Counted from the stretch's first letter, positions 5,139 to 12,971 are shown. The stretch is 12,985 nucleotides of DNA from a virus (IMGVR_UViG_2645727562_000001:1-12985), one strand, 5' to 3'. Notes: generated from the letters alone by a model not told the origin. Numbers and translations are program-made.

Positions 5139-5348
<210 letters not shown>

Positions 5349-5363
5349 TTAGTACATGCAACC

Positions 5364-5392
5364 ATTATCACCGCTAGAGGTAAAATAGTCAA
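5364..5392 (-). promoter_or_regulatory. pR promoter driving cro
   Basis: Minus-strand -35 TTGACT (reverse complement of 5387-5392) and -10 GATAAT (reverse complement of 5364-5369), overlapping OR1/OR2 exactly as in lambda. Confidence 0.85.
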
Positions 5393-5404
5393 CACGCACG
5401 GTGT

Positions 5405-5429
<25 letters not shown>
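5366..5429. promoter_or_regulatory. Right operator OR1-OR2-OR3, lambda type
   Basis: Three 17-bp operator half-palindromes: OR1 5366-5382 (TATCACCGCTAGAGGTA), OR2 5390-5406 (CAACACGCACGGTGTTA), OR3 5413-5429 (TATCCCTTGCGGTGATA). OR2 and OR3 match lambda; OR1 differs at one position from the canonical sequence as recalled. Confidence 0.9.
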
Positions 5430-6153
<724 letters not shown>

Positions 6154-6160
6154 CACGTAA

Positions 6161-6598
6161 ATGATTAAAGAACGTATTTCTTATATCATTCCGATTGCGA
6201 TGGATGAAGGCAACCCAGTAACTCCAGTTCTTATCTATGAAATGGATAAAGACTCCCATGAAGTGGATCTATCATTTGGCGCTTTTTTTATCGGCCTTAA
6301 GGCTACAAAAAAATATTCCATAGGCATTGAGGTTTTCAATGCTCAAGAAATACCGATACCAATTGACACAAAACTGTACTCCAACCATAAGTTTTTTACG
6401 GTAGCAGAAGCCAACGATGGAGAAACCATCGTATCAACTTCTATGAGAATTAACTTCCCAAGGGTGAAAATTATCAAGCCTGGGATATTCGAAGTTAGAG
6501 CATCACTGGTTAATCCTGATAAAGGCGAAGTAATTGATGTAAAAAGTTCGTTTTTTGACGTGAAGATAACAGGATCAGTTCGCGATGAGTTTAGATAA
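6161..6598 (+). CDS. Unknown soluble protein, 145 aa; first gene of the cargo cassette in the rexA position
   Basis: ORF starts 8 nt after the cI stop codon. Markedly AT-rich compared with cI. No transmembrane segment or recognisable catalytic motif; alternating hydrophobic pattern suggests a beta-rich fold. The downstream gene overlaps it by 14 nt. Confidence 0.6.
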   Translation: MIKERISYIIPIAMDEGNPVTPVLIYEMDKDSHEVDLSFGAFFIGLKATKKYSIGIEVFNAQEIPIPIDTKLYSNHKFFTVAEANDGETIVSTSMRINFPRVKIIKPGIFEVRASLVNPDKGEVIDVKSSFFDVKITGSVRDEFR

Positions 6599-6956
6599 CA
6601 AGGTTGCTCAGCTTCGTCCAAATCAAAACATATCTCGCCCAATTGGACACTATTCCACTGATGATGCATACTCACGGCATGGTGGAGGAAACGGCGGAGG
6701 TAACATGCTTGAGGCTAGAGTTGCAAAGCTAGAGTCTGATGTTGAATACATCAAGCGCGATCTCGCTGAAGTAAAGTCAGATATAAAATCTGTAGATTCT
6801 CGTCTGTCAGGTATTGAGACAAGCATTAGCTCAGCAAAAATCACCATCAAGGCATCTGCGGTCGTTGTCAGTTTCGTGTTCGCATTTTGCGCCTACATTT
6901 TTGGAAGTTATGTTTCCAAAATCCTTGATGCCTTAAACGGACTCGTTCTTAAGTAA
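6585..6956 (+). CDS. Coiled-coil protein with a single C-terminal transmembrane helix (XhlA-like architecture); second cargo gene in the rexB position
   Basis: The 123-aa ORF overlaps the upstream gene. An alternative ATG at 6705 is preceded by GGAGG at a 4-nt spacing and would give an 83-aa product starting MLEARVAKLESD. Features: Gly-rich low-complexity N-terminus (HGGGNGGGN), heptad-like coiled coil (LEARVAKLESDVEYIKRDLAEVKSDIKSVDSRLSGIE), then a hydrophobic anchor (ASAVVVSFVFAFCAYIFGSYV). Confidence 0.6.
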   Translation: MSLDNKVAQLRPNQNISRPIGHYSTDDAYSRHGGGNGGGNMLEARVAKLESDVEYIKRDLAEVKSDIKSVDSRLSGIETSISSAKITIKASAVVVSFVFAFCAYIFGSYVSKILDALNGLVLK

Positions 6957-6962
6957 CACACA

Positions 6963-6990
6963 ACCCGGCCTCAGCGCCGGGTTTTCTTTG
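6963..6990 (+). terminator. Rho-independent terminator of the cI-cargo operon (tImm-like)
   Basis: Stem ACCCGGC / GCCGGGT with a 6-nt loop, followed by TTTCTTTG, 7 nt after the cargo stop codon. The flanking sequence resembles the lambda region between rexB and OL as recalled. Confidence 0.6.
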
Positions 6991-7146
6991 CCTCACGATC
7001 CCCTTCACCCAATAACACATAACCAATTGTATTTATTTGAAAATTAATAGATACAACTCACTAAACATCGCAATTCAGATCTCTCGATCACCTCCCAAGC
7101 CACACACCCCTGCAAAAAAATAAATCTATATAAAAAACATACAGAT

Positions 7147-7209
7147 AACCATCTGCGGTGATAAATTATCTCTGGCGGTGTTGACATAAATACCACTGGC
7201 GGTGATACT
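7147..7209 (+). promoter_or_regulatory. Left operator OL3-OL2-OL1 with pL promoter, lambda type
   Basis: OL3 7147-7163 (AACCATCTGCGGTGATA), OL2 7167-7183 (TATCTCTGGCGGTGTTG), OL1 7191-7207 (TACCACTGGCGGTGATA). pL -35 TTGACA 7181-7186 and -10 GATACT 7204-7209. Matches the canonical lambda pL/OL sequence; pL reads rightward in this window. Confidence 0.92.
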
Positions 7210-7277
7210 AAACACATCAGCAGGACGCACTACTCACCAGGGCGGTGAATATACAACGATTCGAATATGAATCTACG

Positions 7278-7292
7278 GCGCTGACAAAGCGC
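7278..7292 (+). promoter_or_regulatory. nutL boxB hairpin (GCGCU-GACAA-AGCGC)
   Basis: Perfect 5-bp stem with 5-nt GACAA loop about 60 nt downstream of the pL start, matching the hairpin at nutR and the P22-type boxB as recalled. No convincing boxA is seen upstream. Confidence 0.55.
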
Positions 7293-7302
7293 AATAACCA
7301 AA

Positions 7303-7445
7303 GTGAACTTTGGGGTGTGGTGAAGGGTTCATGGACGGGAATATGTCGCACGTAAAGCGGCGAGGCCTGCGGGACTATTGCCGAATTGAAGTAGGCCGAA
7401 ACAGGTCGAAATGGGTCTCCCACCTACCACACCACCAAAGTTCAT
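7303..7445 (+). promoter_or_regulatory. Long-range stem in the N leader, adjacent to the N ribosome-binding site (RNase III-site analogue)
   Basis: TGAACTTTGGGGTGTGGTG (7303-7322) is complementary to CACCACACCACCAAAGTTCA (about 7425-7444) with one bulge, enclosing about 100 nt. The N Shine-Dalgarno GGAGG (7448-7452) lies directly 3' of the stem. Lambda has an analogous GGGGTGTGTG / CACACACCACC leader stem. Confidence 0.5.
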
Positions 7446-7457
7446 CAGGAGGTCTAT

Positions 7458-7841
7458 ATGACACGCAGAACTCAGTTCAAAGGCAATTCACGTTCTCGTC
7501 GTCGTGAGCGTTTAAAGGCAAAGGCATTAGCTAACGGCGTACTGGCCCGCGAAGAAGCAATAAGTTCAGAAGTATTACACCGCCCTACTCTAAGCAGAGC
7601 GCAGATTCAGGCTAAAGGTACTCACGAAACGCCTGAGCGCATAGAAGACGCTAAGCCAATTAAGTTCATGGCACAGGACGTGATCTGGCAACAGAAAGAA
7701 TACAGACGCAATCTGGAGAGAGCGGCCATTGTGTACGCGAATGAGTTTGGGCATAGGCAACCAGAAACTGGTGTATGTCTTCCAAATGTAGCTCTTTACG
7801 CGGCAGGCTACAGGAAATCAAAACAACTGACGGCGAGGTAA
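7458..7841 (+). CDS. N: N-family transcription antiterminator, non-lambda type
   Basis: 127-aa protein directly downstream of pL and nutL with GGAGG Shine-Dalgarno. N-terminal arginine-rich motif (GNSRSRRRERLKAKALA). C-terminus LPNVALYAAGYRKSKQLTAR resembles the P22 N-like (gp24) C-terminus as recalled. Not similar to lambda N. Confidence 0.85.
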   Translation: MTRRTQFKGNSRSRRRERLKAKALANGVLAREEAISSEVLHRPTLSRAQIQAKGTHETPERIEDAKPIKFMAQDVIWQQKEYRRNLERAAIVYANEFGHRQPETGVCLPNVALYAAGYRKSKQLTAR

Positions 7842-11989: not shown

Positions 11990-12219
11990 GCATCCGAACT
12001 GAACATGGATTTGGTCCTTCAACGGTCGAAGTCGAATGGCTTGATGATTGCCCTAAGTGCCAGCACGGCAAAGCCAAGGTAACAGGATGGTCGGTAACCA
12101 AAGATTCTTTGTGGGCGGGTGATGAGGCCGTTTGTTCCAAATGCGGTCACAAAGGTGAAATCGATGCTGATGGAGAGAATGCCTGGGTGGAATGGGACGA
12201 AATCGAGGAGGCACAATGA
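11986..12219 (+). CDS. Small zinc-ribbon protein, 77 aa (two CxxC pairs)
   Basis: Internal ATG of ORF 11953..12219 overlapping the upstream stop (ATGA). Contains CPKC and CSKC motifs about 30 residues apart. Confidence 0.5.
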   Translation: MSIRTEHGFGPSTVEVEWLDDCPKCQHGKAKVTGWSVTKDSLWAGDEAVCSKCGHKGEIDADGENAWVEWDEIEEAQ

Positions 12220-12971
12220 GCAACATCGACATCGACACACTGGCGCTGCGTGAGGCGGCAGAACGTGCAATTCCGGCAATGGAACGCCTGTTAATGTTGC
12301 CAGCTGATGATGATTTGTTAACTGAACAGGAACTTAAGGATTACGGTGTGGATATTGATGCGCTCAACGCCTTCAAATTTCTGACCGGACCAGAAACCGT
12401 GTTGGCACTACTGGATGAACGGGAAAGAAACCAGCAATACATCAAACGCCGCGACCAGGAGAACGAGGATATTGCGCTAACGGTAGGGAAGCTGAGAGTT
12501 GAGCTTGAGGAAGTAAAACAACACGCTGAAGAATTATCCGAAACCAAGGCTGTTCGTAACCAATGGCGGCCAGATCTTTGCCCAATAACCGGACGTGCAT
12601 TTTTCATGTGGATTGAGCATCCAACATTGGGAAATGTGCCGACATATGGTGGCCCATTAGATAGTTACACCATTCCAACAAAGGACGGTGACGGTGAGTT
12701 TTCATGTGAGCGTTACGATCATGATTTTGGCGGTTGGGTAGAAAGCGAATGTCTTGGGTTATATCTGATTGATGATAGAGAACAATGCAGGGTCTACGAA
12801 CTGGAGGAACGCGTTAAGGAACTGGATGCTCGGGAAATATCGCTCCCGGAACGTAGCAGCATGCTTCATCGAACAGATTTTCACGATGATTACCAAACGG
12901 TAATGGCATACAAAGTTTCTGAAGTCATCGATGCAATCCGCGCTACTGGCATTCGCATCAAAGGAGAGTGA
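12216..12971 (+). CDS. Ead/Ea22-like family protein, about 251 aa
   Basis: GAGGAGG precedes the ATG at 12216 (MSNIDIDTLALREAAE...), which overlaps the upstream stop. N-terminal coiled-coil and acidic composition fit the Ead/Ea22-like proteins common in enterobacterial lambdoid prophages; assignment is from memory. Confidence 0.5.
   Translation: MSNIDIDTLALREAAERAIPAMERLLMLPADDDLLTEQELKDYGVDIDALNAFKFLTGPETVLALLDERERNQQYIKRRDQENEDIALTVGKLRVELEEVKQHAEELSETKAVRNQWRPDLCPITGRAFFMWIEHPTLGNVPTYGGPLDSYTIPTKDGDGEFSCERYDHDFGGWVESECLGLYLIDDREQCRVYELEERVKELDAREISLPERSSMLHRTDFHDDYQTVMAYKVSEVIDAIRATGIRIKGE

Follow-up and report, generated by a model that had tools for sequence, protein, structure and literature searches.

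A putative nested gene for a short membrane-anchored protein in the immunity region of lambdoid prophages

Introduction

The Esc protein is described as being encoded in frame within sieB and as inhibiting SieB (Ranade and Poteete, 1993, cited in PMC3224144), and the lambda promoter pLit is described as lying inside the upstream coding sequence, where it transcribes rexB alone and stays on after induction (10.1101/2021.04.19.439022). These are the two systems whose logic is closest to that of the locus studied here, which lies in a stretch of 12,985 nucleotides (nt) of viral DNA (IMGVR_UViG_2645727562_000001:1-12985), hereafter the window. The window includes the immunity region of a lambdoid prophage and reads in the direction of lambda's leftward transcription. 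A cI-type repressor gene comes first in the repressor's operon and is followed by two cargo genes, here called gene 1 and gene 2. Gene 2 opens with an ATG at position 6585 and contains, in the same frame, a second ATG at 6705. An earlier note on this sequence had proposed that a promoter and a ribosome-binding site (RBS) inside the beginning of gene 2 would allow a membrane protein of 83 amino acids (aa) to be made independently of the gene upstream. Both halves of this proposal gain support from relatives: the internal RBS and start from conservation at synonymous sites in about 50 lineages, and the promoter from its fixed position and 17-nt spacer in most lineages that carry a gene 1-type partner. 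From the conservation of these features we infer that gene 2 is fairly probably a nested gene, which would yield a long form of 123 aa and a short form of 83 aa.

The sieB/esc gene of P22 and lambda is a prophage-expressed, membrane-associated exclusion gene with an in-frame internal start and an N-terminally truncated product, a plan that gene 2 resembles. The in-frame internal start with a Shine-Dalgarno (SD) sequence of its own, which defines that plan, has an in silico counterpart in gene 2, where start codon and SD are conserved at synonymous sites over the 51 lineages compared. The two differ in that sieB belongs to the pL operon whereas gene 2 lies downstream of cI, and in that gene 2 may also embed a dedicated promoter. 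sieB is subject to an antisense RNA switch; no evidence of such a switch turned up for gene 2, where antisense transcription was not searched for. Esc antagonises SieB, whereas antagonism between the short and long forms of gene 2 is only proposed, by analogy. No SieB family appeared among the Pfam matches of gene 2 at E values up to 1, and its PHROG matches are families without an assigned function.

The pLit-rexB pair, with which the earlier note had compared the locus, is alike in position and logic: two cargo genes stand between cI and the immunity terminator, and the second encodes a membrane protein. The comparison fails in one respect. pLit lies in the distal part of rexA and gives full-length RexB, whereas the candidate promoter described here stands inside the gene 2 reading frame, so that its product would be a truncated form, which brings the locus closer to sieB/esc. 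Set against lambda Rex, the promoter-like element occurs in 17/23 lineages with a gene 1-type partner, and a terminator follows gene 2 at 6962-6983. RexB is polytopic, a third transmembrane domain being mentioned for it (10.1101/2021.04.19.439022), whereas gene 2 has a single C-terminal anchor. Scans of the gene 1 and gene 2 proteins against Pfam and PADLOC returned no RexA or RexB family.

The lambda S105/S107 pair is more distant. It has two in-frame starts and interacting forms whose ratio sets the activity; S' is listed as inhibiting S (PMC3224144). Pfam and PADLOC scans showed no homology of gene 2 to S. Both S and gene 2 are small phage membrane genes with dual in-frame starts, but the starts of S lie 2 codons apart and those of gene 2 lie 40 codons apart; S, whose short form has no separate promoter, belongs to a lysis cassette, whereas gene 2 stands in a lysogenic immunity operon. 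Gene 2 resembles known nested-start systems in its arrangement and belongs to a family of prophage genes that is widespread and uncharacterised. Literature searches found no description of the gene 1-gene 2 pair or of the internal start, and no usable primary transcriptome of enteropathogenic Escherichia coli (EPEC) E2348/69.

A probable internal start codon with a conserved Shine-Dalgarno sequence

The motifs listed in the earlier note, namely TTGGAC (6643-6648), 18 nt, CATACT (6667-6672), GGAGG (6696-6700), 4 nt and an in-frame ATG at 6705, all read as it gave them. The ATG at 6705-6707 is in frame with that at 6585 (6705 - 6585 = 120); it is codon 41 and leaves 83 codons. The four bases between GGAGG and this ATG are TAAC, and a second GGAGG lies at 6684-6688. 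In the window as a whole, GGAGG followed by ATG after 3-10 nt occurs 7 times against 2.5 +/- 1.7 expected, and two of the other occurrences are the starts of cro (5339, minus strand) and N (7458).

Homologues of gene 2 were gathered from one database search and two collection scans, giving 73 proteins and about 130 loci. They share a variable N-terminal part, the head, which precedes the internal start, and a C-terminal part, the tail, which follows it. For the comparison we used 51 head-lineage representatives at one window position, ATG 6705. Four gene copies in three loci were left out for want of a start codon at the aligned position: the two adjacent copies of L040, which are headless and start eight residues upstream, and those of L048 and L050, which fall outside the gene 2 family.

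The aligned codon is ATG in 45 of the 51 lineages, GTG in five and TTG in one, and all head-bearing sequences have one of these three codons there. GGAGG is present 3-11 nt 5' of the internal start in 39/51 lineages, against 15.4 expected when the same peptides are synonymously recoded with the codon usage of the locus (p ~1e-11). The distance from GGAGG to the start peaks at 7 nt (30/53 occurrences), whereas in the recoded set it spreads over 4-19 nt, and the mean energy of the anti-SD duplex is -11.1 kcal/mol as observed versus -9.6 kcal/mol after recoding (Wilcoxon p 1.6e-5). On the strength of this conservation, the internal start at 6705 is likely used.

RNA folding gave no significant structure for 6679-6760 (z -0.17) or 6560-6760 (z +0.78), and the centroid fold leaves the SD unpaired. 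Hiding or exposure of the SD by a structure that differs between long and short transcripts was considered and rejected, these z values providing no evidence for it. A search of both strands of 5300-7500 against Rfam at permissive thresholds returned no RNA family.

A candidate promoter within the head

Of the two halves of the proposal, the promoter is the less certain and the RBS the more certain one. The sigma-70-like element put forward earlier is conserved in relatives, but it is better parsed otherwise: TTGGAC (6643-6648) with an 18-nt spacer matches the -35 hexamer at only 3/6 positions, whereas TGGACA followed by 17 nt and CATACT scores 9/12 in our scan.

It is because of the relatives, and not of the window sequence, that the motif stands out from chance. 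Sites that satisfy the scan rule have a density of 2.87/kb in the 130 nt 5' of the internal start versus 0.58/kb across the loci. When an element had to reach a position-weight score of at least 8 bits and its -10 had to finish 24-48 nt before the start, 21/50 lineages had one, and shifted windows in the same genes gave 1-7/50. Of these 21 lineages, 19 have a 17-nt spacer, and most of the elements stand about 36 nt from the internal start. When each head was recoded synonymously, the mean best promoter score fell from 5.67 bits to 3.38 (Wilcoxon p 9e-6; Fisher combined p 8e-7). The element is distributed by partner gene: it was found in 17/23 lineages with a gene 1-type partner, 2/15 with a CxxC-type partner (see below) and 2/13 with others (Mann-Whitney p 4e-4). 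The lineages are related and not fully independent, which makes these p-values, like those for the SD, optimistic and counts against the promoter.

In the head cluster of the window both hexamers are invariant in 12/12 distinct sequences while the spacer varies. TGGACA is kept in L101-L104 with changed flanking residues (aTT GGA CAc, or I-G-H, versus taT GGA CAg, or Y-G-Q). CATACT spans Ala-Tyr-Ser here and in L074, and reads as in-frame His-Thr in L010, L075, L091, L109 and L114, five unrelated heads in which it is about as far from the internal start as it is here. Since CATACT codes differently across heads, the nucleotide pattern is held in two reading frames at the same 17-nt spacing. Taken with the position and spacing of the hexamers, this pattern inclines us to think that the internal promoter is active.

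The alternative that survives best, although it is unlikely, keeps the internal start and dispenses with the promoter; the short form would then come only from the long cI-gene 1-gene 2 mRNA, and the hexamers would represent a peptide motif, shared ancestry or a recombination linker. Several observations speak for it and against an active promoter. The match in the window itself is at chance level, with 6 promoter-like sites between 5000 and 7600 versus 5.3 +/- 2.3 in shuffled sequence, and its -10 has C instead of T at the first position. The hexamers of many gene 1-type heads fall on an in-frame peptide pattern that recurs among them, (I/V/L)-(D/E)...H-T, and part of the promoter signal could be protein-level for that reason. 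As the element is found in only 2/15 CxxC-partner lineages, which have the SD and the ATG all the same, the promoter is not family-wide. Lastly, the conserved 30 nt adjoin a mosaic breakpoint. Against this alternative stand the loss of score on recoding, the constancy of the spacer (17 nt) and of the position (about 36 nt), the survival of the hexamers in two reading frames and with changed flanking residues, and the excess of matches over shifted windows.

A conservation profile of the gene 1-type lineages aligned anew at the first base of their glycine run was blurred by offsets of 1-3 nt and added nothing. A search for CI operator half-sites found nothing credible near the internal promoter, so control by the repressor is not indicated. 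Repeats and palindromes between 6500 and 6800 are only short and unremarkable. On the minus strand, promoter-like sites lie inside gene 1 at 6310-6339 (TTGAAA, 16 or 18 nt, AATATT or TATTTT), and a weak terminator-like hairpin at 6636-6649 overlaps the CCAATTGG palindrome at the candidate -35. By analogy with the sas RNA at sieB, the minus-strand sites might possibly represent antisense transcription.

Putative long and short forms of gene 2

It is improbable that the 123-aa protein alone is made, with GGAGG and Met41 as by-products of a glycine linker and of a hydrophobic coiled-coil residue, and the hexamers as coincidence. As amino acids, Val and Leu are conservative replacements for Met, but the codons argue otherwise: Val at the internal-start position is always GTG, whereas GTG is used in 4/49 and 5/47 cases at two conserved Val positions of the coiled coil (8-11%) and makes up 26% of Val codons in the background. 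The sole Leu is TTG, a codon found in 1/50 cases at a control Leu position. That the internal Met is a mere hydrophobic residue of the coiled coil was rejected on this result, which fits a start codon instead.

Glycine runs are themselves SD-like, and the recoded sequences already reach -9.6 kcal/mol, so that the Gly-rich linker alone gives a fairly strong SD-like sequence. Even so, GGA-GGN accounts for 39% of linker Gly-Gly pairs versus 11.8% of the 723 such pairs that these loci contain outside the linker (p 6e-12), an enrichment of about 3-fold, and non-Gly linkers keep the SD in other peptides (GPEDPM, CCG GAG GAT CCG ATG; QGGRSM, CAG GGA GGG CGA AGT ATG). The preference of GGAGG for a distance of 7 nt points the same way, although the window, with 4 nt, is on the short side of the family (mode 7).

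Other observations, in addition to the linker energy and this short spacing, weigh against an internal start. All RefSeq records annotate the start at 6585, that is, the long form only. The literature yielded no transcription start, ribosome-profiling or proteomic data for either start, and the homologue P0051, compared as protein, has Lys and not Met at the aligned position.

One member of the family bears on the same question from another side. In L100 (2905-3003) a gene 1 homologue is followed by a 95-nt gap and then by the tail, from the internal Met onward. A head-like peptide (VDNNAKQYGNFSVIDGG...) can be read in a frame other than that of the tail, and GGTGGAGGTGGCGAT-ATG and the tail are intact. 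The head of L100 seems to have been frameshifted while SD, ATG and tail were kept, for which a sequencing error is another possible explanation. A headless or frameshifted member that retains these elements is at odds with a gene that makes the long form alone, and gene callers begin P0053 and P0073 at the internal Met.

The head nonetheless has the marks of a coding sequence. The frame of gene 2 is open for at least 25 codons 5' of the internal start in 49/51 lineages, while the other two frames are so in 25 and 5. In nearly all lineages the ATG of the head abuts or overlaps the stop codon of the partner gene, with gaps of -1, -4, -8, -11 and -14 nt, the overlap in the window being 14 nt. The in-frame glycine run, at about 7 residues, far exceeds the length that an SD needs. 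Since the head itself is coding, both 6585 and 6705 are probably in use. The earlier note had correctly recognised two candidate starts, but it had posed them as a choice of one or the other; the question is probably one of two starts that are both used. That the 83-aa protein alone is real, the head being an untranslated leader that is open by chance and 6585 a mis-annotation, is very improbable: residues 1-40 are predicted to be disordered, the heads are hypervariable, their changes relative to phage epsilon34 over the first 24 codons are mostly non-synonymous and gene callers sometimes choose the internal Met (P0053 and P0073), but the open frame, the contact with the partner stop, the length of the glycine run and the matching of the head alone by PHROG profiles all contradict it.

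Architecture and modularity of the gene 2 family

The features of the window are collected in Table 1.

Table 1. Coordinates of gene 2, its internal elements and the surrounding immunity region, counted from the first letter of the window
Feature	Position	Strand	Remarks
Gene 2, long form, 123 aa	6585..6956	+	Disordered head aa 1-32, Gly linker aa 33-39, coiled coil, C-terminal transmembrane (TM) segment
Short form, 83 aa (putative)	6705..6956	+	Coiled coil and TM segment only, from Met41
Candidate -35, TGGACA	6644..6649	+	Parse from promoter scan
Candidate -10, CATACT	6667..6672	+	17 nt after the -35
Predicted transcription start, A	6679	+	7 nt past the -10, 26-nt leader; placed from standard sigma-70 geometry
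Gly-rich linker GGGNGGG, codons 33-39	6681..6701	+	Same bases encode the internal SD
Internal SD, GGAGGT	6696..6701	+	Spacing of 4 nt to ATG 6705
C-terminal TM segment, about aa 90-110, SAVVVSFVFAFCAYIFGSYV	6852..6914	+	Hydrophobic in translation, helical in AlphaFold2 (AF2) model
Gene 1, 145 aa	6161..6598	+	Cytoplasmic all-beta partner protein; stop TAA 6596-6598
cI-type repressor, 237 aa	5440..6153	+	Peptidase_S24 (E 7e-29) and HTH_3
Lambda-type operator half-sites	5366-5429 and 7154-7207		Flanking the region
Intrinsic terminator 3' of gene 2	6962..6993	+	8-bp stem, 6 GC pairs, then T run
Lambda-type OL/PL operators	~7150-7210
N antiterminator	7458-7841	+

Gene 2 homologues occur in Enterobacterales, Photorhabdus/Xenorhabdus, Vibrio and Pseudomonas, and in more distant proteobacterial metagenome-assembled genomes (MAGs). 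All are built to one plan: the head, about 25-60 residues long and highly variable, is joined by a Gly-rich linker, often GGGNGGG, to a coiled coil and a C-terminal hydrophobic segment. G38 and G39 are conserved in at least 90% of the family. The linker is followed by the motif M-(L/E/Q)-x-x-RVA(K/R)LESDVEYIKRD and then by a coiled coil of variable length, the distance between the N-terminal coiled-coil motif and the TM segment ranging from about 60 to more than 250 residues. The hydrophobic segment is retained in 28/28 tail types. Some coiled coils, in L017, L029, L051, L053 and other Photorhabdus/Xenorhabdus and MAG loci, contain long tandem repeats with units of SKFDARLTKSENRFDSKLTEVE or NSSLSERIEAV.

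The PHROG profile phrog_6136 matches gene 2 over its entire length (E 3.6e-46, aa 1-123 on profile positions 1-120 of 120); the short form alone is matched at E 1e-30 and the head alone, 40 residues, at E 1.3e-8. The AF2 model leaves residues 1-40 disordered (predicted local distance difference test, pLDDT, <50) and places one continuous helix at 41-121. With the helix beginning at residue 41, the predicted folded module starts exactly at the internal Met. In structure the tail resembles only trimeric coiled coils, among them Lpp and P22 gp26. In PADLOC-DB v2.0.0 gene 2 has only weak matches at the level of its coiled coil (a CorA-like candidate, E 0.004; LmuB, E 0.03), and NCBIfam contains no family above cutoff for gene 1 or gene 2.

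Heads and tails are shuffled among the relatives. The heads form about 54 clusters and the tails 28 types; the tail type of the window is paired with 14 head clusters and its head type with 5 tail types. The window resembles Salmonella phage epsilon34 (78% nt identity) and two E. coli variants throughout gene 1 and the head, and the resemblance ends at about 6701-6709. These breakpoints and the shuffling place the junction of head and tail at the internal start.

In a comparison of the window with epsilon34 (L001 2927-2998), the first 24 codons of the head (6585-6656) differ by about 8 non-synonymous changes and 1 synonymous change, and codons 25-33 (TDDAYSRHG) by none of either kind. This suggests that a fast-evolving head adjoins a stretch that is frozen at the nucleotide level and holds the candidate -10. 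Many heads that cannot be aligned begin with a loose motif of polar residues followed by N, V/I, V, x, L/F, R/x and P (window 6585-6680; L006-L133), as in DNKVAQLRP, SNVVQLRAG, NKVVKLFPG, NVFQLPNG and LNVVYLP. This motif is present with both partner types and could be a short docking peptide.

Among Pfam families, XhlA (PF10779) comes nearest to gene 2, with a score of 19.3 bits that is below the cutoff of 34.7 (E 0.0013) over aa 42-88, which belong to the short form. XhlA and the short form are both small proteins that begin with a coiled coil and end in a single TM segment, as far as the helix modelled by AF2 (41-121) indicates. XhlA is known from the xhlA-xhlB-xlyA lysis module of the Bacillus subtilis prophage PBSX. 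Gene 2, in contrast, stands between cI/gene 1 and the immunity terminator, OL, PL and N, with no neighbouring holin or amidase, and its family adds the head and the glycine linker. Some RefSeq homologues of gene 2 are nonetheless named 'hemolysin XhlA family protein'. In lambda-like phages of Mannheimia, a gene for a single-TM protein with an XhlA domain is reported, without functional work, to adjoin cI, and its haemolysin naming there rests on the citation of a Xenorhabdus haemolysin. The 'hemolysin' label on gene 2 homologues is probably misleading and the result of a mix-up: PF10779 also takes in the small membrane protein of B. subtilis PBSX, in which case the label would not fit gene 2.

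A model for expression and function

If gene 2 is nested as proposed, a cI-gene 1-gene 2 mRNA would give the long form from ATG 6585 by translational coupling to the end of gene 1, and ribosomes that bind the linker-encoded GGAGGT of the same mRNA would give the short form from ATG 6705. In phages with a gene 1-type partner, the embedded sigma-70-like promoter (6644-6672) would add an RNA starting at about 6679 from which only the short form could be made. Supply of the short form and the long form from different promoters would make their ratio adjustable. By analogy with the stoichiometry of Esc and SieB and of RexB and RexA, we speculate that the head serves as the link between the long form and gene 1 or a trigger, and that the short form, by co-assembly via the coiled coil, sets, tunes, damps or blocks the activity.

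As a tentative extension, gene 1 and gene 2 may represent a widespread and undescribed two-gene prophage module, made up of a cytoplasmic partner (with an immunoglobulin (Ig)-like beta-sandwich or a CxxC motif) and a tail-anchored coiled-coil membrane protein. The head would then be a swappable element for specificity or docking, the linker an RBS, and the separately transcribed headless form a modulator or antidote of a membrane-acting exclusion (abortive-infection) system or of a switch that controls lysogeny; the stretch of linker and promoter would serve as the recombination joint between head and tail. We regard this functional picture as possible but doubtful.

Should the short form be real, current annotations miss one protein in every member of the gene 2 family. 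A knock-out, a tag or overexpression of gene 2 would in that case act on both products, and its genetics would be misread unless they are separated. The design, with an SD in the glycine codons of a linker and a promoter in a disordered head, would be one of compact overlapping codes. It predicts that the ratio of the two forms is set from two promoters, in lysogeny and after induction.

Partner genes and the cargo slot

The predicted fold of gene 1 is an Ig-like beta-sandwich, and the protein belongs to phrog_5893, a PHROGs family without an assigned function; PADLOC-DB v2.0.0 gave no match to it. As a single query against one genome per species, gene 1 had no match, whereas an alignment of gene 2 succeeded as a query. 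In 15 lineages (L007, L008, L011, L019, L027, L031, L035, L038, L041, L043, L046, L077, L093, L124 and L132) the place of gene 1 is taken by a second partner family, unrelated to it, whose members have about 105-135 aa and a CxxC motif (for example ...ERGVP..C..CGS...), and which we identified as the open reading frame (ORF) ending at the ATG of the head. These lineages retain the internal SD and ATG and mostly lack the promoter-like element.

In temperate phages, the slot behind the repressor gene holds genes that are expressed in lysogens, for example rexAB, bstA and toxin-antitoxin pairs. From 6100 to 7000 the window is 100% or 99.9% identical to prophages of several E. coli genomes, including EPEC E2348/69, whose copy is 99.9% identical. 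In NC_011601.1 a window position x falls at 2,620,278 + (x - 6100), and the loci are E2348C_RS13570 for gene 1 and E2348C_RS13575 for gene 2. In the identical prophages the repressor is annotated as a LexA family protein, and in those of the E2348/69 type both cargo genes are annotated as hypothetical, gene 2 from the upstream start. Compared over the same interval with E. coli genomes, the slot from cI to the terminator is a cargo hotspot: with flanks that are about 96-98% identical, other E. coli prophages carry there a P63C-domain protein, a HicA toxin with a DUF1902 protein, or other hypothetical pairs.

The terminator behind gene 2 is the tImm-like end of the immunity operon. Its hairpin, AACCCGGCCTCAG(C/T)GCCGGGTTTTCTTTGCC, is kept 3' of three different tail types. 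It would seem that the mosaic cargo slot is bounded on the right by this terminator and on the left by the end of cI.

Far from the immunity region, GGAGGCACAATG at 12207-12218 forms a strong SD 5' of an in-frame ATG at 12216, within an ORF of 259 aa on the plus strand (12192-12971). This ATG, 8 codons past the first ATG of the ORF, may be the true start of the gene.

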